Assembly (NCBI GenBank): GCA_964291215.2
Contig: OZ219790.1
Location: 1,792,001 to 1,856,000, forward strand
Direction of reading: 5' to 3'
Origin: Alphaproteobacteria bacterium
Lineage (GTDB): Bacteria > Pseudomonadota > Alphaproteobacteria > MPNO01 > UBA830
Length of the DNA: 64,000 nt
Of the stretch, positions 5,690 to 64,000 are shown piece after piece (position 1 is the stretch's first letter; each line of letters opens with the position of its first letter). The notes beneath the pieces are model-generated. The model ran no database searches. It was not told where the DNA came from and saw only the letters and a program-made list of their open reading frames with translations. Made by a program: the position numbers and the translations under genes.

Positions 5690-5873
5690 TCCGAGTTTGG
5701 CAACCTCCCTTGACGTCCCTCGCTGGATGCCTGGGTTTGAACCCGTATCGTAACTGCTCACCCCCTGGTTCCGGCTTGATGTCGGGGTAGAGTAACGAAC
5801 GGGTTTTCGTGGAGATTTGACACTGCAGGCCGATTCGCTTAGTGGTGGTAATCGAGAACGATGGGGACCGCCA

Positions 5874-6055
5874 GTGGGCTACATTGGATCGAAGGCGACG
5901 AGCGGGCTGTGCCAGCTGCTTCCGGGGCTCCAGCCTCCGCATGATCTGTATGTGGAAACGCATCCGGGAGGCGGCGCGCTGATGAAGCGCAAGGCGGAGT
6001 ACCGGAAAATGCCGCCGGGCGAGCGCCAGGCGATGCTCGCGGCGAGGCCGGGTGA
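5874..6055 (+). pseudogene. DNA adenine methylase remnant inside the IS66-like element
   Basis: VGYIGSKATSGLCQ...PPHDLYVETHPGGGALMKRK resembles the N-terminal SAM-binding region of Dam-like methylases; most of the gene is deleted. Confidence 0.6.
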
Positions 6056-6982
6056 TGGCGACGGGCGGCGCGCGAGGAGTTCGAAGCGGCCAGGACCGCG
6101 GCGCTGCCGGCAAGGTGGCGGAAGAGGCCGTGATCCGCGTCTTCGTCATCCTGCTCGGCATCCTCATCGTCGTCCTTCCGGAGAAGACCACGCACGAGCC
6201 GGAACTCCGGTCTGCCGCCGTCACAGACGGACAAGAGCGTGCCGGGAGCAACGGCCCGAAGCCGAACCGGCAGATGGGCGACAACCTGCGCAAGACCATC
6301 GTCGAGAAGACGGTCGCGGCCTGCGGCGCCGACGGCCCCGTCGAGCGCCGCACGACATCGTGTTCGAGGTCGCGCCGCGTCGACGCCGAGGAATGCCCGA
6401 AGTGCAAGGCCCGGTTCCCCGACAACATCCCGTGCAGTACGGCATCCAGGCCCTCGTCATCAACCTGCTGGTCGCCCAGATGCTGTCCCTGCGCCGTCGC
6501 GCTCGTGCAGGCGATATCAAGCTCTCCGAGGCCTCGGCCATGCTTTCACGATGCGTCATGGGAGGAGGCCGCCGTGGCGCACCTCCTGCAACGCCCGATG
6601 TCGACGATTTCGGATCAACGGCAAGTGGCTCCATGTCGTCGGGACGTGCAAGTTCCCGCACCGCAAGCAAGAGATCGGCCCGTGCTACAAGGGCGTCCTG
6701 GGCCTCGTACATGGCAGTGTAGCCACCAGCGGCAGCCACCTGCTGCGCGAACTGACCTTCGTCGTCGAGGCTACCGCGCGACTGATGAAGAGCCTGCTCC
6801 GCGAGGTCTGCCACAAGATCAACAAGAGCGCATCCAGGACCCTGAACGACGCCGTGCGCTACCGCACCATCAGGGCGCCAGGGAACTGCCCGACATCCCG
6901 ACGAAAGGAAAACGCATCGCAAACGCGCACAACCTGCACGAACGTCTCGTGAAACACGAAAACCTGCGCTTCACAGACGACC

Positions 6983-8440
6983 ATCGCGGTAGGGAACCGG
7001 GTTACCCCCCGCACAGAACCGGACGTGCGCTGTTCGCATCCGGCTCCTCCCTCAGGTCTTGACGACAAGGCGCTGGTTTGGCCACGGATGCTGGCTTTGG
7101 GCCAGTGGGCAAGGGTATCTATGTCCCCGGTGAAGTCCTTTTGGGAGCGTCGCCGAAGGGCACGCAGCTGTTTGCATTGGTGTATGAACTTCTGCAGGCT
7201 GCTTCCCGGGACGGCGTAGTAGCAGCCGTTGATGACTCACCACTTGGCCGTTTCGTGCCGGTTATCGTGCCACCGCTTGCGCAAGGCCTCCTTGATCCGC
7301 CGCAGGGTGCCCGTTTGCGACCGACCCTGAACCTGCCTTTCCTCGTCTGTTCGCAGAAGTGCGTCATGCCGAGGAAGTCGAACGTCTTGTCCACGCTTCC
7401 GGCGGTTCGCTCTGGCAAACCGACCGAACTCGATGATTTTCCGGGTGCAGTTCAAGTGGGCCAGTCTCTCCCCAAGGTCCCAGCGTCGCCCAGATGCTGA
7501 AAGCCGCACACGAAGTCGTCCGCATAATGATCGTGTCCCGCTTGCGCCAGTGGTTCTGGAACCAGTCGCACGTAGTGCAGGTTCGCAAGGCGCCGCCCCT
7601 TGCGGTGTTCCCTTGCCAGTCGGTCCCTTCCATGACGCCGGCGTCACTTGATGATCAGACCCCCCGATCCGTTTCCCGAGCATCGCAACCAGATGGTCGC
7701 GGTTGTCGAAGGGGCGTCAACGATCCAGTTGACCTTCCGCCGTTCCACCGTGACGGCGCATGATGCGCCCCGGCCGGAACCGAGGAACTCCGTTTCGCGG
7801 CACCAGAATCACACCGCCCGCTGAAGAATCTTGTCCGAGGCAAGTTGCCCCTCCTTGGGAATGTAGACCCTGGAGGCGCCCGCCCCTGTGCACACGGGCG
7901 TGCAGGCAGTTCCACCCCGTACGTTTGCCACACAACGCCCCGCCGCCGCATCCTTCCTCAAGGAATGGAACGCAGAACATCACGTGGTGGAGTAAAGACG
8001 CTCTTCCGGGTTCCTCTTCGCTACCTGCCGCCTGTGACCCCCGCTTCTGCGCGCGGCGCGGGCCAACCGCATTGCCCTTCCCTCCAGCAACTCCGCAGGC
8101 TCCGGAGAGCCCTTGTTCGCCGCCTTCAGCGGTACTATGGCCGAATCTGACTTCTCGTTCATCATCGGCTTACGGAATTTCCTCTGCGGCCCCTCCACGA
8201 CAGAGGGGCAAGACCTCCCAGGTCCCTGCTTCGGCCATGGTTCTCGGACCCCGCGGAGCCCCCCTCACCAACGCGGCTCGTTGCCTTCAGCCACGACCTC
8301 GGCGCTCCGGTTTCAAAGCATCTCGTGGCTCAATAGCCTGCCGCTCCCCAACGCTTCGCCTGGCGACGCATGGTTCACGGAGAAATTAGCCTCTCTCGGG
8401 ACTTGCACCCGGCCACATTCCACCAGTTTGCCTGGCGCAC
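6983..8440 (-). mobile_element. Degenerate group II intron with fragmented reverse transcriptase/maturase
   Basis: Minus strand begins GTGCG (8440) and ends with domain V/VI GAGCCGGATGCG...CGCACGTCCGGTTCTGTGCGGGGGGTAACCCGGTTCCCTACCGCGAT (6983); RT remnants KGTPQG, YADDFV (7515-7526 for YADD), IEFGRFA, TFDFLG; removal restores the IS66 sequence of copies 2 and 3. Confidence 0.92.
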
Positions 8441-8673
8441 CCGACGTCAGCTTCACCAACAATGCCGGAGAACAGAAGATCAGGATGGCAAAGCTCAAGG
8501 TGTCCGGATGCTTCCGCTCCACGCAAAAGCATGGTGCCAAGCTACCTCACCTCCATGGCCGCACTCGGCTACAACCCACTCGTCGCCACCCAGATCGCCC
8601 TCGACGGAAAAGCCGCAGACATCATCAACGAGCACTACGACCAATCAGAACCCAACTAGGGGTGAGTAGATAC

Positions 8674-9170
8674 GTTTTTTGTCTGATATCGCCATATCCG
8701 GCAGCGAGCAGGAGCGGATTGTTGGCGCGGCGTCCGAGGCTGATGGTGAATTCGTGGTCGGTGACTTCGACGGTTGCGCTTGCGTTGACGAGTTTTCGGT
8801 AGATGGTTTGCGCCTTTGCCGCCTTCATTTCCCTGCCGGCGCAGTTGGCGAGCATCCTACAGAGTGCGCTGGTCATGAGGGTGAGTTGAATGTCGACATT
8901 GACCCTGAGCCGCACGGCTGCGGGTTCGTTTATCTGGTTGGTGATGAGGAGGGTGGGTCTTTCGTGTCCGAGGTCGGTAATGGCGATCTGTCGGATTTTT
9001 GCGGGGTAGGTGTTGAGGTCGATTTTCTGTTCGAGGATGCGCGGATTGCGGTAGACGCGTCCAATGTTCTTGAGGGTTATCCTGCGCCACTTGCCGGGCG
9101 GCTCGGCGATCTGCCAATGGCGTCTGGTACCGCCTTGTTATCCATTGTTTCGCAGGGAGTGGGGAGACAG
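8674..9170 (-). pseudogene. Transposase C-terminal remnant (family uncertain), cut by the IS66 right end
   Basis: Frameshifted pieces IAITDLGHEEPTLLITNQ and RVNVDIQLTLMTSALCRMLA...LGRRANNPLLLAAGY resemble large DDE transposases. Confidence 0.5.
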
Positions 9171-14148: not shown

Positions 14149-16080
14149 CTACCCTTGCGGCCGGAGGGCGGCGGCCATGAACTCGCGCCACAGCGCCGCC
14201 GGCAGAGTGCCGCCGGTAACCCGCTTCATCGGCTTCCCGTCGTCGTTGCCCATCCATATGCCGGCAACGAGATAGTCGGTATAGCCGACGAACCAGGCGT
14301 CCCGGAACTGCTGGCTGGTGCCGGTCTTCCCGGCGGCCGGCACACCGGGGTTGGCGCGCCTTCCCGTGCCCGACGAGATCACGGCGCGCAGCAACCTGTC
14401 CATCTGCCGCGCCTCGTCGCGCCCGACGACCTGCGACGAAACGCCGGGCCGCCTTCTGTACAGCACTTCCCCCGAACGCCGGCGGATCTCGACGATGCCG
14501 TGGGGCCAGACGAGAACACCGCGGTTCGCGATCACGCCGTATGCGGCCGTGAGTTCGAGCAGCGACAGTTCGTTTGCGCCGAGCGCCAGGCTCGGATGCG
14601 CCCGCAGCGGCGCGGTGACACCTAGCCGCCGAGCCACGTCGATGACGCGGCCGCGGCCCACCGTCTCGGATACCCGGACTGCCACCGTGTTGATCGATTG
14701 CACCAGCGCCTCGCGCATGGTGACGCGGCCGCGGTAGCGATCCGGATAGTTGCGCGGCCGCCACTTGCCGACGGCGAACGGCTCGTCGACGAAGGTGTCG
14801 CCCGGCCGGAGGCCGCTTTCGAGAGCAGCGAGATAGACGAACAGCTTGAAGACCGATCCCGGCTGGCGCAGCGCGCGGCTGGCCCGGTTGAACTGGCTCC
14901 TGGCATAGTCCGTGCCGCCGACGAGCGCACGCACCGCGCCGTCGGGAGTCATCGCGACCAGCGCCGCCTGACCGACGCCACGCTGCCGCCCGACGCCGGC
15001 AACCGTCTTGCGGAGCCGTTCCTCGGCGAGGCGCTGCAATCGCAGATCGAGAGTCGTCCGCACGACGAGGTCGCCGTTTCCCGACCCGACGAAACCGGCT
15101 ACCTGCTCCAGCGCCCAGTCGAAGAAATACCGTGCGGTGCGGCTCGCGCGGAAGGGCACGGCGACCGAGAGTTTCTGCCGAAGCGCCCGGTCGAGGCGCC
15201 CTTCGTCGATAAACCCGGCATCACGCATGGCGCGGAGCACGACCCGTGCGCGCTTTTCGGAAAGCTCGCGATTGCGCAGCGGTGAATAGCGCGACGGCGC
15301 CTTGAGAAGGCCCGCGATCGCGGCCGATTCGAGCAGGCCGAGCCGGCGCGCCGACTTGCCGAAAAACCGCCGCGCCGCGCCGTCGACGCCATAGGCGCCG
15401 GAGCCGAGATAGACGCGGTTCATGTAAAGCGTGAATATCTGCTTCTTGGTGAAGCTGGCCTCGAGCCAGAACGCGAGCAGCAGCTCCTGGACCTTGCGGC
15501 GCACTGTGCGTTCCGGCGTGAGAAACAGATTCTTAGCAAGTTGCTGGGTCAGCGTGCTGCCACCCTGCCTGACCCCCCCGGCGAAGAGGTTGACGAACAG
15601 CGCCCGCGCGATGGCAACTGGATCGAAACCGCCGTGATCGAAAAAGCGGCGGTCCTCGATGGCCAGGATCGCATCCCTCAGATGCGGCGGCACTTCGTCG
15701 AGCGACAGTGATTCGGCGTAGAAATCGCCATAGGTCAGGATCGGCCGGTCGCGGATGTCGGTGAGCGTAACGCTGGCGCGGCGCGTCGGCGCCTCAAGTC
15801 GTTCGACCTGCGGCAGATCGTAGGCGAACCAGGCGACGAGCCCAGCCAGACCGACCGCTCCCCAGACCGCCACAATCAATGTCCAGCGCATCACCGCAGC
15901 CAACCGCCGCCGCGCGGGCTTCGCCGGAGGACGACCGGAACCCTTGTCGGACCCTTCCGTCTTTGCGCGCCGGGCCGGGCGGGACGCGTTCGCCCTTTGC
16001 GATCCGGAGCCCTTGCCGGACCCGGCCGATCCTCCGGCCGCGTGGCCGGATCGGGTACCTCTGCGTCGTGTTCCCGCCAT
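14149..16080 (-). CDS. Class A penicillin-binding protein (transglycosylase-transpeptidase)
   Basis: EDRRFFDH, GGSTLTQQL, RKVQE; SxxK (SVFK), SIN, KTG. Confidence 0.93.
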   Translation of the reverse strand: MAGTRRRGTRSGHAAGGSAGSGKGSGSQRANASRPARRAKTEGSDKGSGRPPAKPARRRLAAVMRWTLIVAVWGAVGLAGLVAWFAYDLPQVERLEAPTRRASVTLTDIRDRPILTYGDFYAESLSLDEVPPHLRDAILAIEDRRFFDHGGFDPVAIARALFVNLFAGGVRQGGSTLTQQLAKNLFLTPERTVRRKVQELLLAFWLEASFTKKQIFTLYMNRVYLGSGAYGVDGAARRFFGKSARRLGLLESAAIAGLLKAPSRYSPLRNRELSEKRARVVLRAMRDAGFIDEGRLDRALRQKLSVAVPFRASRTARYFFDWALEQVAGFVGSGNGDLVVRTTLDLRLQRLAEERLRKTVAGVGRQRGVGQAALVAMTPDGAVRALVGGTDYARSQFNRASRALRQPGSVFKLFVYLAALESGLRPGDTFVDEPFAVGKWRPRNYPDRYRGRVTMREALVQSINTVAVRVSETVGRGRVIDVARRLGVTAPLRAHPSLALGANELSLLELTAAYGVIANRGVLVWPHGIVEIRRRSGEVLYRRRPGVSSQVVGRDEARQMDRLLRAVISSGTGRRANPGVPAAGKTGTSQQFRDAWFVGYTDYLVAGIWMGNDDGKPMKRVTGGTLPAALWREFMAAALRPQG

Positions 16081-16136
16081 CGCGTTACATGTAATATGCC
16101 GATTCGAAAGCCATTCGTCGCCGACGCTCCGAAGGA

Positions 16137-16655
16137 GTGAACATGAGCTCCACAGCCACCATCCTTGTTCGCCCAGCGGTTCGCGCAGACGCCGAGGCGG
16201 TTGCGACCTTGGCGCAGCAGTCCCGCCCGCCGGGCAGGAGCAGGCCGTCGGAACTGTCGGCAGAGATATTCCTGCGCGACGGATTTGGCAACAATGCCGC
16301 TTTCCGGACGCTCATCGCCGAGGCCAACGGAGCTGCGCGCGGATACGCGATCTATTTTTGGGGGTATGATCCCGGGAGCGCTACACGGGGTGTCTATCTC
16401 GCAGCACTGTTCGTCGATGAGCACTGGCGCCGCAGGGGCATCGGACGGGCGCTGGTGCGCGGCCTTGCCCGGCTGGCCAGCACCGAGGGCGGTCGATGGG
16501 TTTTCTGGTCGGTCCTCAAGAACGACCGTCGCGCACGGCGCTTCTACCGCACACTGGCGCCCGAGCTTGCAAATGTCGTGGTCTGCGCGGCATACGGCCA
16601 GGATTTCGACCGCATCGCAGTCCCCGGCGGTCAGGACCGCGCTACCAATGACTAA
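16137..16655 (+). CDS. GNAT family N-acetyltransferase
   Basis: [16 protein letters not shown] acetyl-CoA motif; N..ARRFY. Confidence 0.85.
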
Positions 16656-17741
16656 CGGCTCCGCCTTGATCCTGCGCCGGCCAGACGACTGGCACGTCCA
16701 TCTCCGTGACGGCGAGATGCTCGCCGCCGTGGCGCCCTTCACCGCAAACGTCTTCGGCCGCGCGATCGTCATGCCCAATCTCGTGCCGCCAGTGGTCACC
16801 ACCGCGGACGCCCGCGCCTATCGCGAGCGGATCCTCGCGGCAACTCCGCCCGGAGCCGGCTTCACGCCGCTGATGACGGCGTATCTCACCGACAACACCA
16901 GCCCGGATGATCTCGCCGCGGGCCACGCCGCGGGCGTGCTCACCGCCGCCAAGCTCTATCCGGCAGGCGCCACGACGAACTCGGACCGCGGCGTGACCGA
17001 CACCGCCGCGATCCGGGATGTCTTGGCCTGCATGGAACAGCTGGGCATGCCGCTCCTCTTGCACGGCGAGGTCACCGATCCCGAAATCGACATCTTCGAC
17101 CGCGAGGCCGCGTTCATCGAACGGATCCTCGGGCCCGCCCTCGACCGCCATCCCGACCTGCGGGTCGTGCTCGAACACGTGACGACGGCGGACGGCGTAG
17201 AGTTCGTGCGCAGCGCCGGAAGCCGCGTCGGCGCCACCATCACGCCGCACCATCTCGTCCTCAACCGCAACGCGCTGTTCGCCGGCGGTATCCGGCCCCA
17301 CATGTACTGTCTTCCGGTGGCCAAGCGCGAGCACCACCGGCTGGCGCTGCGCGACGCCGCGGTTTCCGGGGAACCGTCGTTCTTTCTCGGAACGGATTCG
17401 GCGCCCCATCCGGTATCCGCCAAACTCGCGGAGTGCGGATGCGCCGGCATCTTCAACGCCCCGACCGCGCTCGAGACCTATGCCCAGGTCTTCGACGACG
17501 AGCGGGCGCTCGACCGGCTTGAGGCATTCGCGTCGCTGAACGGGCCGGCATTCTACGGATTGCCGCCGAACCGGGACACGGTCGCTCTGGAACGCGGCAC
17601 GCGCCGCAGCGCGCCGGTCATTCGGACAGGCGGGGACGAGGTGGTCTGCTTCGCTCACGGAGAGGGGCCCGGTTGGCGGATCGCGCGCCGGGAGACCAGC
17701 CCACCGGCGCGGCTGCGCCAAGGCAGAGCTGGAGACGTGCA

Positions 17742-17745
<4 letters not shown>
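16648..17745 (+). CDS. pyrC: Dihydroorotase
   Basis: [37 protein letters not shown]. Confidence 0.95.
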
Positions 17746-19238
<1,493 letters not shown>

Positions 19239-19250
19239 CCGCGGGGCCGG

Positions 19251-20207
19251 GTGCGCTCCGTGGAACCCGGCGCCGCCCGTCTGGCGCACTACTGGCTCGC
19301 CCTGCCGGCGAATTTCCGGGGCATATTATGGCTTAGCCTCGGGACGCTGCTGTTCGCGACCGTCGACGTGTTCGTCAAGGGGCTGGGCCAGAAGTTCGAC
19401 GCGACCGAGATCACGTTTTTCCGCTACGTCGCCGGACTGGTCGTGCTCACGCCGCTCTTTCTGCGCATGACCGCGGAAGACATGCGCACACGGAAGCTCG
19501 GCCTGCATGCCACACGCATGAGTTTCGCGTTCGTCGCCCAGGTCCTGGTCATCATTTCGGTGATCCACATGCCGCTGGCCGACGCCACCGCGTTCATGTT
19601 TTCCAAACCGCTGTTCACGACCGTGGTCGCGGTCATCATGCTTCGCGAGATCGTTACCGGCCGCCGCTGGACGGCCACGTTTGTCGGGTTTGCCGGCGTC
19701 CTCGTGATTCTGCGCCCCGGGGCGTCGGGCATCGACGCGATCGCCGTCGTCGCGCTCGGCGCGGCGCTGACCTTCGCCATCGCGAACGTCCTGATCCGCG
19801 TGCTCGCGCGGACCGAACCCACGGTCCGGATCCTGTTCTACTATCACATCGGCGGCGTGCTGGTCTTTGCGGGACCGACCTACTGGTTCTGGAAGACCCC
19901 CGTCGGCCTCGAATGGGTGCTTCTCGGCGGAATCGGGGTCCTGACGACCGGCGGGATGGTGTCGTTCGTGCGCGCCTTCTCCGTTGGCGAGGCCAACGCC
20001 GTCGGACCGGCCGAGAACATGCGCCTGATCTACGCCGCCCTGTTCGGCTTCCTCATCTTTGCCGAAATCCCCACCAGCTGGACAGTTGCCGGCGCACTGA
20101 TCATCGCCGGAAGCACGCTGTTCATCGCCCGCGAGGAGGCGAGCCAGAGGACCGCCGCGAAAGCGTCCGACCAGACGGGAAACACCGCCGCGAAGCGGCA
20201 GCTCTGA
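19251..20207 (+). CDS. DMT/EamA family transporter
   Basis: About 10 TM segments; PLADATA, GFAGVLVILRPG. Confidence 0.88.
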   Translation: MRSVEPGAARLAHYWLALPANFRGILWLSLGTLLFATVDVFVKGLGQKFDATEITFFRYVAGLVVLTPLFLRMTAEDMRTRKLGLHATRMSFAFVAQVLVIISVIHMPLADATAFMFSKPLFTTVVAVIMLREIVTGRRWTATFVGFAGVLVILRPGASGIDAIAVVALGAALTFAIANVLIRVLARTEPTVRILFYYHIGGVLVFAGPTYWFWKTPVGLEWVLLGGIGVLTTGGMVSFVRAFSVGEANAVGPAENMRLIYAALFGFLIFAEIPTSWTVAGALIIAGSTLFIAREEASQRTAAKASDQTGNTAAKRQL

Positions 20208-20271
20208 AGACGCGCCGGACACGCCCCGGGCAGGCCCGGTTCCGGCGAATCCGGCCGGAAGCGGCGGCGCG

Positions 20272-21438
20272 TCAGGAGGCCGGCGCGAGACGGAGAATCT
20301 TCCCCCTGCGCTCATCGGTCACGGCATACACGAAACCGTCCGGTCCGACGCCGACATCCCGGATCCGGCGGCGTTCCGCCTCGAGAAGCCGTTCCTCGCC
20401 CAGGAGCCTCGCGCCGTCGAGCTCAAGGCGGATGATAGCGCGGGACCGTAACCCGGAGATAAGCAGGTTTCCCTGCCAACCCGGGAAGGCGGCGCCGGTG
20501 TAGAACGTCATGCCTCCCGGCGCGATCACCGGCGTCCAGATCACCAGCGGATCCTCCATTCCCGGCGCCGACCTGCGGCCGCTGCCGACCGGCAGGCCCG
20601 AATATTCCACCCCGTGCGACACCACCGGCCAGCCATAGTTGCGTGCCGGTTCTGCAATGTTGATCTCGTCGCCGCCCCGCGGGCCGTGCTCGATCGCCCA
20701 GAGCTTGCCGGAAACCGGATGTATCGCCGCGCCCTGGACGTTGCGATGCCCGTAGGACCAGATCTCGGGGCGGGCCCCGGGCCGCCCGACAAACGGATTG
20801 TCGCGTGGAACGCTACCATCCGGGCGGACGCGGACGATCTTGCCGAGATGGGAGCCGAGCTCCTGAGCCTGCACACGGTAGGACCGGCGCGAACGCTCGC
20901 CCAGCGTGACGAACATGTTGCCGTCGCGGGCGAACACGACTCGCGAGCCGTAGTGCAGTCTGCCGGACAGCCTGGGCAGCTGGCGGAACACGACCGTGAC
21001 GCCCTCGAGAGCTGTCCCGGCAGCATTGAGCCGTCCCCGCGCGACCGCGGTAGAGTTCCTGCCCCCTGATCCGGGTTCGGTGTAGGACAGATAGACGAGA
21101 CGGCTGTCCGCAAAGGCCGGGTCGAGAGTGACGTCGAGCAGGCCGCCCTGGCCGGCATCGGCGACCGCCGGCACGCCGTTGACCGGCGGCGACAGGCGTC
21201 CGGCGCGGCTGACGATCCGGAGCCGGCCCGGTTTTTCGGTGACGATCATCCGCCCGTCGGGAAGGAAGTCGATTGCCCACGGATAGGCCAGCCGGTCGGT
21301 GAGCACCGCGAGCCGTATCCGCGCCCGCTCGGTGTCGAACACGCGCTCGTCGGCGAGCGCCGGCGGCAACATCAAGAGCATCCCGGCGACGACGCATGGC
21401 AGGAAGCCCGACCATGCGCGTGGATTCGATACCGCCAT
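20272..21438 (-). CDS. PQQ-dependent soluble sugar dehydrogenase (YliI-like)
   Basis: Signal peptide; GQGGLLDV, HYGSR, WSYGHRNVQG, EHGPRGGDEIN, NYGWP. Confidence 0.92.
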   Translation of the reverse strand: MAVSNPRAWSGFLPCVVAGMLLMLPPALADERVFDTERARIRLAVLTDRLAYPWAIDFLPDGRMIVTEKPGRLRIVSRAGRLSPPVNGVPAVADAGQGGLLDVTLDPAFADSRLVYLSYTEPGSGGRNSTAVARGRLNAAGTALEGVTVVFRQLPRLSGRLHYGSRVVFARDGNMFVTLGERSRRSYRVQAQELGSHLGKIVRVRPDGSVPRDNPFVGRPGARPEIWSYGHRNVQGAAIHPVSGKLWAIEHGPRGGDEINIAEPARNYGWPVVSHGVEYSGLPVGSGRRSAPGMEDPLVIWTPVIAPGGMTFYTGAAFPGWQGNLLISGLRSRAIIRLELDGARLLGEERLLEAERRRIRDVGVGPDGFVYAVTDERRGKILRLAPAS

Positions 21439-21545
21439 GACCTTTCCCTCCCGGGGACGACTGTCGCTGGCAGGCCGCGCCCTTGCCGGGCGGCGCCTCC
21501 TCCTGTCTAGGTCCTGCGCGGCCGGACGGCGCGCGCACCGGGACG

Positions 21546-22586
21546 CTAGAGAACCTCCGCGGCCACGATCCGAAGCGCATCGACCGTGGCGCCGCCGAGC
21601 AGCAGGGCGGTGATCTCGCCGCGCGCCGCGGACTCCTTCCATGCCGCCAGGCGGTCGGCGATGCGCTCAGGCGGGCCGACCAGGGCAACCTCGTCGACGA
21701 GCGCGTCGGGCACTGCCGCCGCCGCGTCGCCGGGGCGGCCGTCGAGGAAGGCGTCCTGGATCGCCAGCGCCGCGTCCTCGTAGCCCATGCGCCTGACAAA
21801 TCTGTTGTAGAAGTTGCGGTCGCGCGATCCCATGCCGCCGACATACAGCGCAAGATGCCTCTTCAGGGGCTCGCGACAGGCATCGAGATCCGGTCCGACG
21901 CTGATCTGAACGAATGGCGCGACCTCGAAGTCCTCGGCGCTCTTGCCGCCCCCGGCAGCGTCGAGCCCCTCGCGGATCGCCGGTGCGAACAGGTCGAAGC
22001 GCCCGGGGCTCATCCAGACCGGAAAGAAGCCATCCGCGATCTCCGCCGCTGTGCGTATGCCTGCCGGGGAGATCGTGCCGGTATATATCTTCAGCCCCGG
22101 GTCGCCATGCAGGATGCTCTTCAACGGCTTTCCGAGGCCTGTCGCATCGTCACCGTCATAGGGGATCCGGTAGTGGCTCCCGTGATGGACCAGGGGCTGC
22201 TCGCGGGCCAGTATCTTTCGCACGATCCCGATATATTCGCGGGTCCGCTCCATCGGCCGCCCGTAGGCCTGCCCGTACCACCCTTCCGCCACCTGCGGTC
22301 CCGACGGCCCGACGCCGAGCATGAAGCGGCCGCCGGAAAGGTTGTGCAACGTCATCGCCGTCATCGCCGCCATCGCCGGCGCCCGCGCCGGCATCTGCAT
22401 GATCGCCGTTCCGACCTTCAGCCTGCTCGTCTGCGCGAGGATCCAGGCCGCAGGCGTGACGGAATCCGAGCCATAGGCTTCCGATGTCCACGCCGATTCG
22501 TAGCCCAGCGCTTCCGCCTCGCGGATCAAGTCCATATCGACGCTAAAACTCTTGCCCGAATACCCGACGGTCAGACCGAGCTTCAT
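21546..22586 (-). CDS. LLM-class oxidoreductase, probably F420-dependent
   Basis: WTSEAYGSD, TAIMQMPAR, SGGRFMLGVGPSGPQVAEGWYG, ALYVGGMG. Confidence 0.85.
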   Translation of the reverse strand: MKLGLTVGYSGKSFSVDMDLIREAEALGYESAWTSEAYGSDSVTPAAWILAQTSRLKVGTAIMQMPARAPAMAAMTAMTLHNLSGGRFMLGVGPSGPQVAEGWYGQAYGRPMERTREYIGIVRKILAREQPLVHHGSHYRIPYDGDDATGLGKPLKSILHGDPGLKIYTGTISPAGIRTAAEIADGFFPVWMSPGRFDLFAPAIREGLDAAGGGKSAEDFEVAPFVQISVGPDLDACREPLKRHLALYVGGMGSRDRNFYNRFVRRMGYEDAALAIQDAFLDGRPGDAAAAVPDALVDEVALVGPPERIADRLAAWKESAARGEITALLLGGATVDALRIVAAEVL

Positions 22587-22737
22587 GGCTGCGTTCCCCT
22601 TATCGTTCCGGAAGGCTCATCGCACCGGTCCTTACGCCGGAAACGGCGTCATGTCCATCTGTACCGGCGGCCCGCCCCGGCAACCTCCCGGCGCCGGCCG
22701 GAGTGGCAGAGGCCCGGCCGATATGGGACAAGAGGCG

Positions 22738-23490
22738 ATGGAACACGATGCGATCGAACTTGCAGTGATCGCCGCCATCTTCCTGCTCGCCGGTGGGATC
22801 AAGGGCGCGATCGGGCTCGGTCTGCCGACGGTGTCGATGGGGCTGATGGGCGCGTGGCTGCCGGCAGCCGAGGCGGCAGCGCTCCTCGTGCTGCCGGCCT
22901 TCCTTACCAATGTCTGGCAGATGCTCGACGGTCCCCACCTGGCGCGGTGCTGGCGCCGGCTGTGGCCGATGATCGTCACGCTGGCGGTATTCGCGGTCAT
23001 CGGCACGACGGTCATCACAGGAGCGAGAAACGCGCTGACGCTGAGCCTGCTCGGCCTCATGCTGATCGTCTTCGGAGTCCTCAGCCTCCGTGGCACCCGC
23101 TTCAGGGTCCGCAGCAGCCGCGAGCCGGCGCTCGGCCTCGCGGTCGGGACCAGCACCGGCCTGATCACCGGAGCCACGGCAGTGTTCGTGATCCCGTCCG
23201 TCCTCTACATCCAGGCGCTTGAGTTCGACAAGACGGAGTTCACCCAGGCCATCGCCCTGACGGCGTTGACAGCGACCGTCGGCCTCGCCGCCGGCCTCGG
23301 CCTCCACGGGCATTTCGCCGTCGTCGACATCGCGCTTCCCGGCGTCTGCGCAACGCTGACGGCCTTCGCCGGCATGGCCGGCGGTCAGGCAATGCGGCGG
23401 CGCGTGCCCGTCGAGACCTTCCGCCGCTGGGTTCTCTGCGGCCTGATCGCGCTCGGGGCGGCGATGATCCTGCGCGCCGCCGCATCGTGA
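22738..23490 (+). CDS. Sulfite exporter TauE/SafE family protein
   Basis: AGGIKGAIGLG, TNVWQ, repeated TM architecture. Confidence 0.82.
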   Translation: MEHDAIELAVIAAIFLLAGGIKGAIGLGLPTVSMGLMGAWLPAAEAAALLVLPAFLTNVWQMLDGPHLARCWRRLWPMIVTLAVFAVIGTTVITGARNALTLSLLGLMLIVFGVLSLRGTRFRVRSSREPALGLAVGTSTGLITGATAVFVIPSVLYIQALEFDKTEFTQAIALTALTATVGLAAGLGLHGHFAVVDIALPGVCATLTAFAGMAGGQAMRRRVPVETFRRWVLCGLIALGAAMILRAAAS

Positions 23491-25106
23491 AACGGCGCCG
23501 GAAGGCGGGGCGGGCGCATCTCGACTCCCGCATCCCTTCGGGGCACGATGGGCTGGAAGATCCGCAAATCCACAGCTTCGGAGGAACCGTCGTGGCAGGC
23601 AGCAACACAGGGCTTGGAGACTTCGTCCTCGCCGAAGCCACCTTCGCCGACATTCACGCGGCCTATGCCAGCGGCGCCTTGAGCGCGCGCAGGCTGGTCG
23701 AGGCCTACCTGGAACGAATCGAGGCCTACGACCGCAACGGCCCGAAGATCAATTCGCTTGTCTGCGTCAACCCGAAGGCGCTCGAGGAGGCCGACCGCCT
23801 GGACGCCGCGCTTGCTGCTTCGGGCCCCGTCGGCCCGCTTCACGGCATCCCGCTGGTGATGAAGGACCAAGGTGACGTCCTCGAAATGCCGACCACGATG
23901 GGCTCGGTGCTGTTCCGCGGCCACATGCCGGAGAGAGATTGCTTCATCGCTGCCAAGCTCCGGCGCGCCGGCGCCATCTTCATCGGCAAGGCAACGCTCG
24001 GTGAGATGGGCGCCGGCGACACGCACGGCTCGCTGTTCGGCTCGACGCGCAACGTCTACGACCTTGCGCGCACCGCCGGCGGCTCATCGGGCGGGTCAGG
24101 CGCCGCCGCTTCCGCCAACCTGACCGCGGCCGCCATCGGGCAGGAGGGCTTCGCCTCGATCAGGCGTCCCTCGACCTGGAACGGCGTCGCCGGCATGCGG
24201 CCGACCGCCGGCCTCGTCAGCCGCGGCGGCGTCTATGCCGGATGGCCATCGATCAACGGCTCTCTCGGCCCGATGACGCGCCGCGTGGCCGATCTCGCGC
24301 GCCTCCTCGACAGCATGGTTGGATTCGATCCCGACGACCCGTTGACAGGGCGCGGCGCCGGCCGGCTTCCGGCAAGCTGCCACGCGCTGCTGGAAGGCGA
24401 GGCTGCCCGGAACGCCCTCGATGGTGCCCGCATCGGCATCCTTCGCGAACCGATGGGCTATGCGAGCGAACCCGATTCCGACGATTTCGCAAAGGTCGAC
24501 GCCGTGTTCTGCCGGGCGGTCAGCGAGCTCGCCGATGCCGGAGCCGATCTCGTCGACCCGCTGGTCATCCCCGGCCTCAACGACCTCCTCGCCCAGCGCG
24601 CCGGCGATGTCGAGGCCGAGGACGAGGCGTTCCGAATCTACGCCACGGGAAGCGCCGGAAGCCCGTTCGCGTCCCGGCAGGAAGCGATGGCCTCGCCGCT
24701 CTATGCCGAGACCTTCCAGGGCGTCCGCCGCCGCTGGGAAGACCGGCCGTCCGCCGAAGCTCACGGCCGCTACCTGAAGGCGCGGGACAGCCTGATGACC
24801 ACGCTGCTGGCGAAGATGGCGGAGCACCGGCTCGACGCCGTCGTCCACAAGTCGGTCGAGCACCAGCCCACGCTCATCGAACACGGGGTCAATCCGCCGT
24901 GGGTCGACCAGAAGGGCGCACCGCACATCAACACCTTCCTCGTGTTCGTGCCCTCGATCGTGGTTCCGGCGGGTTTCACCGACGACGGGCTGCCGGCCGG
25001 CATCACCTTTCTCGGCCGGCCCTATTCGGATGCCGGCATGCTGTGCCTCGCTCACGCCTACGAACAGGCGACAGGGCACCGCAGGGCACCGCAATGCGCG
25101 CCATGA
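23487..25106 (+). CDS. Amidase signature family enzyme (true start possibly GTG at 23592)
   Basis: GPLHGIPLVMKD, GGSSGGS, SIRRP, GLPAGITF. Confidence 0.9.
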   Translation: MKRRRKAGRAHLDSRIPSGHDGLEDPQIHSFGGTVVAGSNTGLGDFVLAEATFADIHAAYASGALSARRLVEAYLERIEAYDRNGPKINSLVCVNPKALEEADRLDAALAASGPVGPLHGIPLVMKDQGDVLEMPTTMGSVLFRGHMPERDCFIAAKLRRAGAIFIGKATLGEMGAGDTHGSLFGSTRNVYDLARTAGGSSGGSGAAASANLTAAAIGQEGFASIRRPSTWNGVAGMRPTAGLVSRGGVYAGWPSINGSLGPMTRRVADLARLLDSMVGFDPDDPLTGRGAGRLPASCHALLEGEAARNALDGARIGILREPMGYASEPDSDDFAKVDAVFCRAVSELADAGADLVDPLVIPGLNDLLAQRAGDVEAEDEAFRIYATGSAGSPFASRQEAMASPLYAETFQGVRRRWEDRPSAEAHGRYLKARDSLMTTLLAKMAEHRLDAVVHKSVEHQPTLIEHGVNPPWVDQKGAPHINTFLVFVPSIVVPAGFTDDGLPAGITFLGRPYSDAGMLCLAHAYEQATGHRRAPQCAP

Positions 25107-25204
25107 CGGCGCGCCGGCCGCGATTCACGGCGCCCGGCGGTGCATCGCGGGGGATTTGCTGCTAGCCTCCGCCCGGGAACGGGCCGACAACGAGGGAGGA
25201 CCAG

Positions 25205-26512
25205 ATGCCACGGGATGCGACAGACAGCACGGTTTCCGGCGGGGCCATCGACGATCTCGATCCCTGCTACAGTTGGGACCGGGCGATTCCGGCTCCCGGC
25301 CACTCGGGGGTGGATTTCGAGCAGCGCGTGGATTTTGGCCGGCTGCACCGTTACCGACTGGCGCACGCGCACGAGGCGCTTCGCGATTCGCATCTCGGTT
25401 CGCTCCTCTGCTTCGACAACAACAACATCCGCTACCTGACCTCAACCGTCATCGGCGAATGGTCGCGCGACAAGATGTGCCGCTACGCGCTGCTCGCCGG
25501 CGACGACCAGCCGCATCTGTGGGACTTCGGATCGGCAGCGGCGCATCACCGCCTGCATGCGCCGTGGCTGCCGGTCGACCACTGCCACGCCGGCATGCTG
25601 GGGCTGCGGGGCACGGTACCGCCGGATGCCGGTCTGATGAAACGGGCGGCAGCGGAGATCGCCGCCATGCTGGCCGATGCCGGCGTCGCCGGCATGCCCG
25701 TGGGCGTCGATTTCTGCGAGCCGCCGATGATGCTTGCCCTTCAGGACGAGGGGCTGACGGTGGTCGACGGCCAGCAGGTCATGCTCGATGCGCGCGAGAT
25801 CAAGAACATCGACGAGATCACGCTTCTCAACCAGGCCGCCGCGATGGTCGACGCCGTCTACCAGATGATCGGCGAGGAGCTGAAACCCGGCGTCCGCGAG
25901 AACGACATCGTCGCCAGGGCCAACCAGATGCTCTACGAGATGGGATCGGATGATGTCGAGGCCATAAACGCGATCTCGGGCGAACGCTGCTGCCCGCATC
26001 CGCACAACTTCACCGACCGCCTCGTGCGTCCCGGCGACCAGGCGTTCTTCGACATTCTCCACTCCTACTCGGGCTACCGCACCTGCTACTACCGCACGTT
26101 CAATGTCGGCCGCGCCACGCCCGTGCAGGAGGATGCCTACAAGCAGTGTCGCGAATGGCTTGATGCTGCTATAGAGCTCGTGCGCCCCGGAGTCTCCACG
26201 GCAGAAATCGCGTCGGTCTGGCCGCGGGCCGAGGAGTTCGGCTTTGCCAACGAGATGGAAGCCTTCGCCCTCCAGTTCGGGCACGGCCTCGGCGTGGCGC
26301 TTCACGAACGCCCGATAATCTCCCGCCTGTGCTCGCTCGACGATCCAAAGGAGATCCGCGAAGGCATGGTCTTCGCCCTTGAGACCTACTGTCCGGCGAA
26401 GGACGGCTTCTCGGCGGCACGGATCGAGGAGGAGATGATCGTGACGCCCGACGGCGCCCGCGTCATCAGCCTCTATCCGGCCGAGGATCTGCCAATCTCC
26501 AACCGGTACTGA
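25205..26512 (+). CDS. M24 family (Xaa-Pro peptidase/creatinase-like) hydrolase
   Basis: NIRYLT, AREIK, GHGLG, GMVFALET, ARIEE. Confidence 0.85.
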   Translation: MPRDATDSTVSGGAIDDLDPCYSWDRAIPAPGHSGVDFEQRVDFGRLHRYRLAHAHEALRDSHLGSLLCFDNNNIRYLTSTVIGEWSRDKMCRYALLAGDDQPHLWDFGSAAAHHRLHAPWLPVDHCHAGMLGLRGTVPPDAGLMKRAAAEIAAMLADAGVAGMPVGVDFCEPPMMLALQDEGLTVVDGQQVMLDAREIKNIDEITLLNQAAAMVDAVYQMIGEELKPGVRENDIVARANQMLYEMGSDDVEAINAISGERCCPHPHNFTDRLVRPGDQAFFDILHSYSGYRTCYYRTFNVGRATPVQEDAYKQCREWLDAAIELVRPGVSTAEIASVWPRAEEFGFANEMEAFALQFGHGLGVALHERPIISRLCSLDDPKEIREGMVFALETYCPAKDGFSAARIEEEMIVTPDGARVISLYPAEDLPISNRY

Positions 26513-26539
26513 CGGGCTGCGGCACCGGGAGCCCGGCTC

Positions 26540-28590: not shown

Positions 28591-28606
28591 CGCTGCTTCC
28601 GCGCGG

Positions 28607-30016: not shown

Positions 30017-30189
30017 GCTCGCTGGCCCCCGCGCCTGGCTCTGTTTCGACGCCGCATTGTCATGGCCCGGTCGCTGTCAAGTCAAGCGCACGGCATCCGT
30101 CCGGGCTGCCGGGACGGGCTTGCCGGCGCACCCGGGATGACGCTATATGCCCTTCGGAGATCTCCGGCTCCCGCATCGGGACATCGCCA

Positions 30190-40710: not shown

Positions 40711-41030
40711 GCTGTTTGAAAGGTGCGGGACGCTATGCCGACCTTGTTCGATCTGCTGGAAAGTGAGTCCGAGCCGTCGGTGCGGGCCGTGCTCGGGCAC
40801 TGGCTGTTCGGCTATATCCATTCTTATCCGGACGGCAACGGACGCATGGCGCACTTTGTCATGAACGTGATGCTCACCTCCAGCGGCTATCCATGGATCG
40901 TCATCCGGGTCGAGGATCGTGATGTCTACTTGGCAGCGTTAGAAGCCGCCAGCATCGATCAGGACATAAACCGGTTCGCGCGGTTTGTGGCCGAAAGGGT
41001 TAATGGTCGCTGGAGCAGGCGGCGTGAAAT
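40711..41030 (+). pseudogene. C-terminal fragment of a Fic family protein truncated by IS66 copy 3
   Basis: GHWLFGYIHSYPDGNGRMAHF (degenerate Fic motif), GYPW, YLAALE. Confidence 0.75.
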
Positions 41031-51159: not shown

Positions 51160-51228
51160 GCCCGGGCCGGACACCGCCTCCCGAGGCCGCAGCAGCGGAT
51201 ACTGCCTCGCTACGCCCGGGCCGACCGT

Positions 51229-60826: not shown

Positions 60827-61312
60827 TCAGGCGCCGAATTCCAGATCGGCCGGCGAAATCAACACTCCGAACTGGACGCACCAGATCACCACGCTGGAAT
60901 ATTTCGTCAGATCGACGCCTGCGGGGATGGGATATCTCTGGCTGCCCCTGAAGGCGCGCAGCTTGCCGAGATCGACGAACATCGTTCCCCTGACGGCGGC
61001 GGAATCACGGATTTTCTCGCGCGGCACAAGATAGACGTGAAACGCCGGCCCGGGCCCGACCTCGAAATCGTCTTCGAGAAAGACCACGGTCTCGCGCATC
61101 GTGACCCCGCCCTTTCCGTAATGGATGGGGTCGCCGGGATCGGCATGAATGAACGTTCCGCGGGCGACGACCGCAGTCTGCTCCCCCGGCGCCAGGGTTT
61201 CCATCGCCGCCGGCGGCGGGAACACATAGGGGAATACGAAGATGCCGACGGCCACGCCGAACGCTGTACCGAAGATGCCGCCGAACAGGAATATCCAGAC
61301 AAATCGCCGCAT
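60827..61312 (-). CDS. DM13 domain membrane-anchored protein
   Basis: HYGKG, GPGPAFHVYL, DLGKLRAFRGSQRY, VVIWCVQF. Confidence 0.88.
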   Translation of the reverse strand: MRRFVWIFLFGGIFGTAFGVAVGIFVFPYVFPPPAAMETLAPGEQTAVVARGTFIHADPGDPIHYGKGGVTMRETVVFLEDDFEVGPGPAFHVYLVPREKIRDSAAVRGTMFVDLGKLRAFRGSQRYPIPAGVDLTKYSSVVIWCVQFGVLISPADLEFGA

Positions 61313-61824
61313 GGTCACCTCTCGCATCACATGGTCGACCCTAGGGTGCTGCCGACCAGGGCAGGAGCGCGCCGCTTCGGGCGCTACGCCCGTTTCCTCG
61401 CAGGCCGCTCGTACCGCCGTTCTCTTCCTGAGGCCAGGAGGCACCTCACGGCCGACCCTTTCCCCTGCACTCGCCGCTTAATGTAACCCACCCCCTTTCC
61501 GGCGCATAGCTCCGCTCGGCGATCACCGCCGCGTTTGCGGTTCCGGGCACAGAAGCGCCGACCGCGAGAAAGGCCAGGAGCGCGATGCCCGAGGTCGCCC
61601 TGCCAACGGGCAGCGCCGCGGCGGCTTGAACCGTCCGTCGCCCGGGAATTTGCAGGCGACAACCCGGTACGCGCAACAGGCCCGCAGAATATGGGAGCTT
61701 CATGCGCCATGGCCGGAACGGTCCGGGTAGCGAAGAGCGCAAACTGGTCGGACAGGCGGTAATGGGCCTTGATCCCAGGTTCAGTCTGGACCGGCCACGC
61801 CTTCGATGGAATATATCATTGCCA

Positions 61825-64000
61825 GTAACTGCTCACCCCCTGGTTTCGGCTTGATGTCGGGGTAGAGTAACGAACGGGTTTTCGTGGAGATTTGACACTG
61901 CAGGCCGATTCGTTTAGTGGTGGTTATCGAGAACGATGGGGACCGTCAGTGGGCTACTTTGGATCGAAGGCGACGAGCGGGCTGTGCCAGCTGCTTCCGG
62001 GGCTCCAGCCTCCGCATGATCTGTATGTGGAAACGCATCTCGGAGGCGGTGCGCTGATGAAGCGCAAGGCGGAGTACCGGAAGATGCCGCCGGGCGAGCG
62101 CCAGGCGATGCTCGCGGCGAGGCCGGGTGATGGCGACGGGCGGCGCGCGAGGAGTTCGAAGCGGCCAGGATCGCGGCGCTGCCGGCAAGGTGTCGGAAGA
62201 GGCCGTGATCCGCGTCCTCGACATCCTCATCGTCGTCCTTCTGGAGAAGACCACGTACGAGCCGGAACTCCGGTCTGCCGCCGTCACAGACGGACGAGAG
62301 CGTGCCGGGAGCAACGGCCCGAAGCCAAACCAGCAGATGGGCGACAACCTGCGCAAGACCATCGTCGAGGAGACGGTCGCGGCCTGCGACGCCTGCGGCG
62401 CCGACGGCCCCGTCGAGCGCCGCACGACATCGTGTTCGAGGTCGCGCCGCGCCGAGATCAAGGAATGCCCGAAGTGCAAGGGCCGGTTCCCCGACAACAT
62501 CCCGTACAGTACGGCATCCAGGCCCTCGTCATCAACCTGCTGGTCGCCCAGATGCTGTCCCTGCGCCGTCGCGCTCGTGCAGGCGATATCAAGCTCTCCG
62601 AGGCCTCGGCTATGCTTTCACGATGCGTCATGGGAGGAGGCCGCCGTGGCGCACCTCCTGCAACGCCCGATGTCGACGATTTCGGATCAACAGCAAGTGG
62701 CTCCATGTCGTCGGGACGTGCAAGTTCCCGCACCGCAAGCAAGAGATCGGCCCGTGCTACAAGGGCGTCCTGGGCCTCGTACATGGCAGTGTAGCCACCA
62801 GCGGCAGCCACCTGCTGCGCGAACTGACCTTCGTCGTCGAGGCTACCGCGCGACTGATGAAGAGCCTGCTCCCTGCCACAAGATCAACAAGAGCGCATCC
62901 AAGACCCTGAACGAGGCCGGGCGCTACCGCACCATCAGGGCGCCAAGGAACTGCCCGACATCCCGACGAAAGGAAAACGTGGACGCATCGCAAACGCGCA
63001 CAACCTGCACGAACGTCTCGTGAAATACGAAAACCTGCGCTTCACAGACGACCATCGCGGTAGGGAACCGGGTTACCCCCCGCACAGAACCGGACGTGCG
63101 CTGTTCGCTCCTCCCCTGACGACAAGGCGCTGGTTTGGCCACGGGCTCAGTGGGCAGCGGTGAGGGTGTCTGTGTCCCCGGTGAAGTCCTTTTGCGAGCG
63201 TCGCCGAAGGGCACGCAGCTGTTTGCATTGGTGTATGAACTTCTGCAGGCTGCTTCCTGGAACGGCGTAGTAGCAGCCGTTGATAACTCACCACTTGGCC
63301 GTTTCGTGCCGGTTATCGTGCCACCGCTTGCGCAAGGCCTCCTTGATCCGCCGCAGGGTGCCCGTTTGCGACCGACCCTGAACCTGCCTTTCCTCGTCTG
63401 TTCGCAGAAGTGCGTCATGCCGAGGAAGTCGAACGTCTTGTCCACGCTTCCGGCGGTTCGCTCTGGCAAACCGACCGAACTCGATGATTTTCCGGGTGCA
63501 GTTCAAGTGGGCCAGTCTCTCCCCAAGGTCTCAGCGCCGCCCAGATGCTGAAAGCCGCACACGAAGTCGTCCGCATAATGATCGTGTCCCGCTTGCGCCA
63601 GTGGTTCTGGAACCAGTCGCACGTAGGTTCGCAAGGCGCCGCCCCTTGCGGTGTTCCCTTGCCAGTCGGTCCCTTCCATGACGCCGGCGTCACTTGATGA
63701 TCAGACCCCCCGATCCGTTTCCCGAGCATCGCGACCAGATGGTCGAGATTGTCGAAGGGGCGTCAACGATCCAGTTGACCTTCCGCCGTTCCACCGTGAC
63801 GGCGCATGATGCGCCCCGGCCGGAACCGAGGAACTCCGTCTCGCGGCACCAGAATCACACCGCCCGCTGAAGAATCTTGTCCGAGGCAAGTTGCCCCTCC
63901 TTGGGTATGTAAACCCTGGAGGCGCCCGCCCCTGTGCACACGGGCGTGCAGCAGTTCCACACCCTCCGCGTACGCTTGCCACACAACGCCCCGCCGCCGC
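61825..64000 (+). mobile_element. Degenerate IS66-family element, copy 4 (contains intron; runs off window)
   Basis: Left end GTAACTGCTCACCCC; near-identical to 5750-7950. Confidence 0.92.
63054..64000 (-). mobile_element. Second degenerate group II intron copy (partial)
   Basis: Same junction GACGACC|ATCGCGG as at 6983; domain V partly deleted. Confidence 0.88.

Follow-up and report, generated by a model that had tools for sequence, protein, structure and literature searches.

RIP in fungi acts during the sexual cycle through a methyltransferase homologue, and the C-to-T transitions it introduces leave repeats irreversibly inactivated. Bacteria are thought to shed mobile elements by large deletions together with a weak power-law deletion bias. 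The E. coli TopA R35P mutator generates short deletions, mostly of 1-4 nt and genome-wide, that are independent of repeats and fall at hot spots shared in position between independent lines (available part of PMC6954433), and TopA favours a C four bases before the cut (available part of PMC7587558). In deletion-biased nonallelic gene conversion, indels are exchanged among paralogues and deletions reach high frequency across copies; the available part of the eukaryotic account (PMC3280953) describes neither a fixed size nor a motif. Bacterial pseudogenes show a deletional bias attributed to alternative end-joining (A-EJ), with power-law sizes and an excess of multiples of three, in an analysis from which IS repeats were masked (available part of PMC6054270). 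In the literature searched, which consisted mostly of papers free of subscription, we found no account of bacterial mobile elements losing 5-7-nt pieces at hot spots.

The DNA analysed here, a 64,000-nt stretch (the window) of the genome of an uncultured marine-type alphaproteobacterium (G000), carries dead mobile elements whose size-locked excision at hot spots represents a different mode of decay and matches none of the systems tested. As in the TopA R35P mutator, short deletions fall at hot spots independently of repeats and recur at the same positions, and the opposite strand has a C at the corresponding place in 72% of sites, as against 57%; the pieces lost, however, measure 5-7 nt. The exchange of indels among paralogues and the high frequency of deletions across copies recall nonallelic conversion, but here sites recur in families without plausible conversion between them, and two-copy elements are shredded with no donor. 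An excess of deletions over insertions, microhomology at fewer than half of the sites and the absence of Ku-LigD are shared with pseudogene decay, whereas lengths of 5 and 7 nt lie far above 3 and 4 nt and a junction may recur in up to all copies. The irreversible inactivation, focused on repeated mobile DNA and for which two copies can suffice, is RIP-like, although the lesions are deletions in a bacterium, single-copy DNA shows a background of them, and a dependence on homology would be drawn by analogy. RIP-type C-to-T transitions themselves are ruled out, as the excess consists of 5-7-nt deletions and SNP density per copy is unremarkable. Our preferred reading, to which we assign a probability of about 0.45, is that dead elements shed 5-7-nt pieces at recurring spots set partly by sequence, through cutting and rejoining by a host enzyme that would act more readily on ectopically paired copies.

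The four IS66 copies named in the original prediction are present, together with other repeated elements and single-copy controls (Table 1). The IS66 assignment follows from the DDE_Tnp_IS66 transposase of an intact, 89%-identical relative in another host, G314 (Pfam, E 3e-40), from GTAA ends and from 8-bp target duplications, which are exact at 111 of 169 IS66 copies; the flanks of copy 3 form no such duplication. The IS66 and intron frames of the window retain no Pfam match, an example of how shredding conceals elements from annotation.

Table 1. Features of the window; missing pieces of the IS66 copies are counted against the consensus of the intact G314 relative.
Feature	Position	Strand	Remarks
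Repeated element abutting copy 1 on the left	3960..5749		~30 long copies
IS66 copy 1, dead, single-ORF type	5750..8674	+	interrupted by group II intron; 38 pieces (277 nt) missing before the intron
Group II intron remnant	6983..8439	-	Rfam RF00029 and RF02005; ~60 copies genome-wide
Single-copy host genes, intact (control)	14149..32273
ISAzo13 remnant	32490..33508	-	Pfam DDE_Tnp_ISAZ013; 5-8-nt gaps against 5 partners
AAA_25/DnaB-like fragment, single-copy, split by copy 2	33562..33954	-	other half at about 35513-35735
IS66 copy 2	33955..35504	-	exact 8-bp target duplication; least eroded, 23 pieces (159 nt) missing
IS66 right-end fragment, isolated, same IS66 as copies 1-4	35735..35904	+
IS66 copy 3	39264..40711	-	36 pieces (262 nt) missing
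IS66 copy 4	61826..64000, continues beyond the window	+	intron from 63054; 37 pieces (269 nt) missing before the intron

Alignment to the consensus of the intact G314 relative confirmed that the copies differ by deletion, with gains limited to 1, 0, 1 and 1 single bases in copies 1 to 4. The examples quoted from the sequence (GGC-AAGGGC-CCG, GCCTGCG, CGAC-ATCGAC and GAG-ATCAAG-G) were each found in long and short form. The accompanying statement that substitutions were few did not hold, as there are 28 per copy against 32 deletions. Shredding of the same kind, mainly by 5-7-nt gaps, was found in the intron (about 10.5 such gaps per pair, 52 partners), in the element to the left of copy 1 (about 6 per pair, 18 partners) and in ISAzo13 (5 partners). 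The name ISAs1 proposed for the element to the left of copy 1 was not confirmed. That element yielded no name or close intact relative in plasmid searches and no annotated match, and the IS66 end had no match in a metagenome scan. The host genes and the helicase-like fragment around copy 2 do keep open frames, as predicted; the fragment is open for 204 codons across the target duplication of copy 2 and serves as an internal control.

Genome-wide, 114 IS66 copies compared with the same consensus show 2,903 losses and 1 gain of 5-7 nt. Among 155 distinct IS66 deletions, 86 are of 5-7 nt and one is of 4 nt, and in 42 partly overlapping repeat tiles the corresponding figures are 593 and 10 of 935. 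The size profile thus spans 5-7 nt with a mode at 6 and a trough at 4. Each site has essentially one length (over 139 sites, the main length has 3,238 carriers and any other length 72), and identical junctions recur across copies, at most in all of them. Losses amount to as much as a quarter of the DNA of dead element copies, and to 10-25% of the transposase. We saw no coding-strand bias and no replichore bias (45% versus 51%) of the deletions, so that no pathway is pointed to. The self-BLAST of the genome used contig C1 as its query, and blastx covered C1 together with C2 up to 1.19 Mb.

It is extremely improbable that this pattern stems from an artefact of assembly or consensus, or from ordinary slippage during replication. 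Both alleles occur, at depths in the thousands, in contigs of three sequencing runs; single-copy DNA shows no differences, and genes are intact. One run-derived contig reproduces window positions 32001-32600 plus 41700-52000 letter for letter. This evidence comes from read-derived contigs, and the run that matches best could itself be that of the source sample, which leaves some room for an artefact. Slippage would be expected to favour strong repeats, with sizes declining from 1 nt, and ordinary decay in bacterial pseudogenes gives the power law and 3n excess noted above (PMC6054270, available part).

The original prediction placed the deletions between short direct repeats. However, 355 of 1,253 distinct 5-7-nt sites have no microhomology and 306 have just 1 nt (together 53%). 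At least 2 nt is found at 47% of sites, compared to 16-22% expected by chance, and the hot-site rate climbs from 0.5% without microhomology to 17% with 4 nt or more. Microhomology therefore boosts the odds of a deletion but is dispensable at most sites. One deletion end carries a soft motif, G/C|R-T/C: among 85 hot sites free of microhomology, 40% have S|RT, versus 11% of the background, and the EM motif reaches a log-likelihood of 180 against 63-80 in controls. A cross-validated sequence model attained an AUC of 0.83, compared to 0.75 for size plus microhomology. Local sequence is a moderate predictor, the top 5% of scores capturing 40% of hot sites at a precision of 9%. Hairpins were not in excess at deletion sites.

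The rise with microhomology, together with two Cas1 loci in the genome, would suit the mechanism first proposed, in which multicopy DNA is broken by a dedicated defence such as Argonaute or CRISPR and then repaired by microhomology end-joining. We consider this very unlikely. Its end-joining half is largely refuted, since microhomology amounts to 0-1 nt at 150 of the 260 hot sites and the size is fixed. Alternative end-joining, which would give broad sizes, was rejected on the size lock and on the 53% of the 1,253 sites with 0-1 nt. Searches for components of the proposed mechanism gave no Piwi match in 41 genomes with positive controls (a Pfam model that short Argonautes may slip through), no Ku in 25 family genomes and no match to an ATP-dependent ligase. 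CRISPR self-targeting is ruled out, as none of 111 spacers matches the genome's repeats and no PAM-like motif lies at a fixed distal distance. NucS was considered for its 5-nt overhang geometry and endonuclease V for cutting the second bond 3' of a purine. Both (nucS and nfi), along with TopIB (0 of 25 family genomes) and endonuclease VII, were excluded as effectors, the genes having no match in G000.

Recurrence at the same junction could reflect repeated origin or copying between copies. We compared the IS66 family with a sibling family that is 81.6% identical and has a longest identical run of 30 nt. Of 27 sites in the sibling, 10 are shared exactly and 16 nearly, where 4.2 are expected by chance (0 of 2,000 shuffles), and sibling-specific SNPs are retained 2-4 nt from four shared junctions. 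The sibling thus loses identical pieces yet retains its own adjacent SNPs, which indicates that sites recur independently. This test concerns one family pair, with sibling coverage of 1-12 fragments per site, and the sibling is hit at only 10 of the 37 main hot sites (3 of 8 in identical context, 7 of 29 in different context). Deletions are also less tightly linked to neighbouring SNPs than SNPs are to each other: over 4-12 nt, D' is 0.55-0.63 for deletion-SNP pairs (n=168) versus 0.79-0.82 for SNP-SNP pairs (n=221; P 1e-9). In dead two- and three-copy elements for which the genome offers no donor, 31, 13, 36 and 24 pieces are lost on one side versus 2-4 on the other.

Conversion from copy to copy also happens, as allele movement between paralogues is seen in a nested composite and in mosaic SNPs. 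In the composite pair, the inner three-copy IS has 3 SNPs and no gaps over 1,976 bp, while the outer high-copy intron has 54 SNPs and 16 gaps over 1,483 bp, and all 16 junctions are found elsewhere. A rival reading is a deletion drive, in which each 5-7-nt deletion has a single rare origin and then spreads one way by loop-removing gene conversion. The single length per site suits a drive, 38 of 38 junctions are shared in the nested composite (three non-independent pairs), a frequency of 50% is exceeded by 22 of 71 derived deletions (four near-fixed) compared to 13 of 205 SNPs, and there is the eukaryotic precedent (PMC3280953, available part). We nevertheless regard a drive as unlikely. The identical losses in the sibling family, with its own SNPs so close to the junctions, weaken it, and the two-copy elements are densely shredded on one side without a donor. 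SNPs in the nested pair increase as much as deletions, so that a conversion bias is unnecessary, and the drive leaves size and motif unexplained.

Whether repeats are targeted is less clear. In 19 single-copy loci that are disrupted, frameshifts of 5 or 7 nt number 0.18 per kb, about fivefold fewer than the 0.83 and 0.99 per kb in 34 and 32 repeated loci. A possible but doubtful alternative is that the same hot-spot excision runs genome-wide and is blind to repeats. Mobile DNA would then stand out because it is unselected, long dead, often copied after being shredded and equipped with fresh hot spots, while resident spacers have exhausted theirs and genes purge the events. A repeat-free 20-kb stretch of single-copy core DNA accords with this, lacking four 6-nt pieces relative to 95%-identical strains, one of them lost after a 0.7% strain split, so that the selectivity for mobile DNA first claimed is not confirmed. 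The two single-copy frameshifts lie in one remnant, which is densely hit by three signature losses (-7, -5 and -6 in 0.4 kb). Two-copy dead elements are as dense in deletions as 170-copy ones, whereas 0-4 gaps separate two-copy pairs whose frames are intact; in true 2-3-copy DNA, 81 of 154 clean indels are of 5-7 nt. The IS66 ends, mostly free of deletions, fit mobilisation of copies shredded beforehand.

Against a repeat-blind process stand the roughly fivefold scarcity of such frameshifts in disrupted single-copy loci and the helicase fragment, which has stayed open over its 204 codons. The latter argument fails if the deletions of copy 2 were inherited. In 752 intact orthologues there are 3 six-nt versus 27 three-nt losses, compared to 312 versus 24 in repeats. 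At matched divergence, gap density also climbs from 0.5 to 5.5 per kb as copy number increases, a gradient that is confounded by selection and that we at first took as a dose-response; we downgraded it given the shredding of two-copy elements. The single-copy comparison of the original prediction is accordingly split, with the same spectrum speaking against targeting and the lower density for it, and the dependence on copy number is seen as a confounded gradient. In the unique flanks of eight split loci, an insensitive HMM test called 1 frameshift per kb, compared to 0.13 for intact and 1.9 for simulated shredded sequence. Core-gene pseudogene calls against G004 and G002 (27 and 7 flagged) were too few to serve and mainly alignment noise.

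On the preferred reading of cutting and rejoining by a host enzyme, the losses of 5-7 nt, the single length per site and the one-ended motif with its microhomology boost are observed, as is, in one family pair, the independent loss of the same piece in families too diverged for conversion. A single-strand cut 5-7 nt from the rejoining point would leave a 5-7-nt loop, invisible to MutS and fixed by replication. MutS, MutL and RecA are intact, and MutS recognises loops of up to four nucleotides (PMC8235422, available part), a limit that would account for the 4-nt trough. Ectopic conversion then reshuffles SNPs and deletions among high-copy elements, as seen in the composite. In the most tentative step, pairing of copies may expose single strands and so make the rate several-fold higher in repeats than in single-copy DNA, in which a low background would persist and most events would be purged by selection. 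A stricter version, in which a host enzyme excises 5-7 nt from paired repeats in a form that mismatch repair cannot see, so that a second copy brings death by frameshift to any transposon, intron or duplication, would be a bacterial counterpart of RIP; we hold it to be a speculative possibility, less probable than the preferred reading. If homology dependence is true, this would be a bacterial repeat-silencing defence. If the process is independent of homology, it would be a natural mutational signature not described before, pointing to a cut-and-rejoin activity; read cautiously, the untargeted version adds a further form of enzyme-made short deletions.

Among candidates for the enzyme, a type IA topoisomerase is a weak one. 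In a 33-sequence core-domain alignment, the motifs equivalent to R35 and R168 are retained in TopA, which has no private change common to G000 and G002 at family-conserved columns. A TopA short-deletion mutator was rejected, as deletion sizes mismatch (1-4 versus 5-7 nt) and the core domain bears no damaging substitution.

The size lock, the motif, the independent recurrence and the intact IS copies in another host support an active, enzyme-like, host-specific process over ordinary decay, in line with the original prediction of an active process, but not with its breaks and microhomology end-joining. The 28 copies of the same IS in G314 have no indels at 9.7 substitutions per kb. In G002, which belongs to the same genus as G000, repeats contain 45, 80 and 7 distinct gaps of 5, 6 and 7 nt and 4 gaps of 4 nt, with the motif C|ATC as in G000. 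The signature is thus host-specific, present in G000 and G002, with intact copies in G314. Since the hosts differ while carrying the same IS66, the determinant should be mappable through comparative genomics.

We put at roughly 90% the probability that mobile-DNA decay in G000, the genome of an uncultured alphaproteobacterium, is dominated by a genuine deletion process that is size-locked, acts at hot spots and is specific to this host lineage. The four IS66 copies of the window and all four deletion examples quoted in the original prediction were recovered, and its proposal of an active process concentrated in mobile elements holds as a host-specific signature of recurring 5-7-nt losses. Searching 401 genomes yielded an intact IS66 relative, 89% identical (family by Pfam), in another host, G314. 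Relative to it, the IS66 copies are missing 371 pieces of 5 nt, 1,291 of 6 nt and 1,241 of 7 nt, along with three of 4 nt, and show one gain of 5-7 nt (114 of 118 intron-free copies, four being left out for mispaired ends). Distinct deletions in 42 tiles of repeat families number 935, of which 593 measure 5-7 nt, and echoes appear at 11-14 nt; three tiles have no distinct deletion of this size, two of them from a 15-copy family whose members are nearly identical. Both alleles are present, at depths of thousands, in contigs assembled from the reads of three runs, and these contigs match single-copy DNA exactly, although all three belong to one study and the best may be the source sample of G000. 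Thus, the deletions are not a consensus artefact.

The losses had been attributed to microhomology end-joining. Microhomology of at least 3 nt occurs at 30% of distinct sites (5-8% by chance), and the rate of hot sites, where losses recur, rises with it from 0.5% to 17%; yet microhomology is limited to 0-1 nt at 150 of 260 hot sites, and of 1,253 distinct sites 355 have none and 306 a single base. The signature is not defined by microhomology, and end-joining of this kind is not retained as the defining process. A soft motif (G/C followed by A/G, T/C, C/G) marks one deletion end, the other end lies 5-7 nt on, and each site has essentially a single length (3,238 carriers versus 72). No hairpin, coding-strand or replichore bias was found at the deletion sites. 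A sequence model predicts the sites moderately, which counts against full determinism.

The deletions disregard the substitution tree (787 steps versus 848 shuffled; SNPs, 600 versus 1,048), and deletion-SNP linkage at 4-12 nt is weaker than SNP-SNP linkage. Our initial reading was one-way copying of deletions between copies, in line with each site having one length and with a skew to high frequency. Copy-to-copy conversion is real: within one composite, SNPs and gaps are six times as dense in the high-copy part as in the three-copy insert, and 38 of 38 composite junctions were seen elsewhere (three copies, so that pairs are not independent). However, a sibling IS66 family, 81.6% identical and with no identical run above 30 nt, has 10 exact and 16 near shared sites (27 sibling sites in 20 fragments; chance expectation 4.2). 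At four shared sites (18 fragments) the sibling retains bases of its own within 2-4 nt of the junction, and at three of the four the deleted sequence itself differs. Moreover, two- and three-copy elements are shredded on one side (31 versus 4, 13 versus 2, 36 versus 2 and 24 versus 3 gaps), in pairs carrying 45, 21, 175 and 171 SNPs and lacking a donor in the genome. The sibling sites and this donor-less shredding argue for a recurrent origin of the deletions. In the sibling, where coverage is patchy, no more than 10 of the 37 main hot sites are hit, which again counts against full determinism.

The same-genus genome G002 has 45 distinct gaps of 5 nt, 80 of 6 nt and 7 of 7 nt, bearing the motif of G000 (0.8 of 6.1 Mb examined), while the comparison genome G004 has few dead repeats and no size peak (1.6 of 3.8 Mb). 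Among at least 40 IS66 copies in G314, the 28 with the best scores lack any indel over 1,389 bp and differ by 9.7 substitutions per kb; this choice favours intact copies, yet all 40 matches listed are near full length. Thus, high copy number alone does not shred. The transposase regions of the G314 copies (L257-L282) are intact, but 5' lengths vary and left-end candidates lie at different distances, which suggests large deletions in the passenger region. G002 deletions measure 5-6 rather than 5-7 nt, and matches to C5 DNA methyltransferases number 20 in this genome versus one in G000. A strain ~95% identical to G000 occurs in run X4, labelled sponge metagenome; its IS66 depth is near single-copy level (window 33955-40711) and no 6-nt piece is missing relative to G000 among the matches listed. 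The G000 lineage may therefore have acquired both its IS66 expansion and the signature recently.

The further claim that repeats are targeted is unproven, as 6-nt losses occur in single-copy DNA too; enrichment in repeats beyond selection appears slightly better than an even bet. In its favour, 752 intact orthologues show three six-nt versus 27 three-nt losses, and the single-copy helicase fragment split by the second IS66 copy is still open. Over C1 and C2 up to 1.19 Mb, 19 disrupted single-copy loci, some of which may not be dead, hold two frameshifts of 5/7 nt versus 14 stops and shifts of 1-2 nt; the corresponding figures for repeated loci are 34 versus 46. Against it, three signature losses lie in one single-copy remnant. 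A repeat-free 20-kb core stretch also lacks four 6-nt pieces when compared with 95% strains: two of them are intergenic and two lie at a gene start, and one of the four might instead be a duplication in those strains. Compared with a 99.3% strain, one such piece is absent. The 12 of 18 matches listed include no 3-nt difference. The copy-number gradient of gap density is largely due to intact, selected paralogues. Sequence-determined hot spots would be exhausted in long-resident spacer DNA.

Ku, ATP ligase, Piwi, NucS, EndoV, EndoVII and TopIB were not found in searches of G000, nor were self-targeting spacers matching its elements. One CRISPR spacer is duplicated. MutS, MutL, RecA, XseA and DinB are intact. 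In the available text of PMC8235422, the loops bound by MutS are no longer than four nucleotides; a one-strand loss of 5-7 nt would escape it and survive, and the trough at 4 nt would fit. The fixed motif at one end and short variable run at the other suggest cutting, trimming and rejoining, possibly on single-stranded DNA. TopA is an unlikely effector. An E. coli TopA mutant likewise yields repeat-independent short deletions at recurring spots, but mostly of 1-4 nt (available text of PMC6954433); TopA requires single-stranded DNA and favours C at -4 (available text of PMC7587558). Here the C signal is modest (72% versus 57%), and no lesion common to TopA of G000 and G002 was found. The process belongs to none of the known systems tested, and our search of the published literature found no such 5-7-nt hot-spot deletion process. 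New here are the control in a host whose copies are intact, the evidence from the sibling family that deletions recur independently, and the observation that two-copy elements are shredded on one side.

G000 (6.15 Mb, two contigs, 64% GC, 99% complete) has a 16S ~89% identical to named genera, and its best protein matches are uncultured Alphaproteobacteria; the window corresponds to C1:1,792,001-1,856,000. Repeated DNA makes up ~38% of contig C1. IS66 is present as 169 end-to-end copies, of which 111 are flanked by an exact 8-bp target duplication, and a 505-codon frame is recovered when copies are combined. In many copies a group II intron occupies a fixed site in the transposase, sometimes as tandem introns. 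The passenger-type 230-aa ORF, which by motif we take to resemble a Dam-like adenine methyltransferase, had no match in a Pfam search.

Features of G000 and related loci
Feature	Location	Remark
CRISPR array, Cas1 frame alongside	C1:574,247-581,122	96 repeats, Cas1 599 codons
CRISPR array, Cas1 frame alongside	C2:2,068,487-2,069,483	17 repeats, Cas1 315 codons
Second reverse-transcriptase element, two copies	C1:94,843-96,884 and C2:13,007-14,825	same site within main group II intron (twintron-like); one copy minus 31 pieces
Group II intron in IS66 transposase	window 6983 and 63054	
Passenger ORF, IS66 5' region	window 5750-6100; L155:4024-4716	heavily eroded
15-copy, nearly identical element	C1:141,600-143,700	intact 230-aa ORF related to passenger ORF; no 5-7-nt gaps in two tiles
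HTH gene, then Fic-domain ORF	window 37862-41331	second partial Fic ORF beyond third IS66 copy
Selenocysteine tRNA	C2:1,816,652	
Nitrile hydratase alpha subunit	window 54126-54902	
NnrS gene	window 9222-10415
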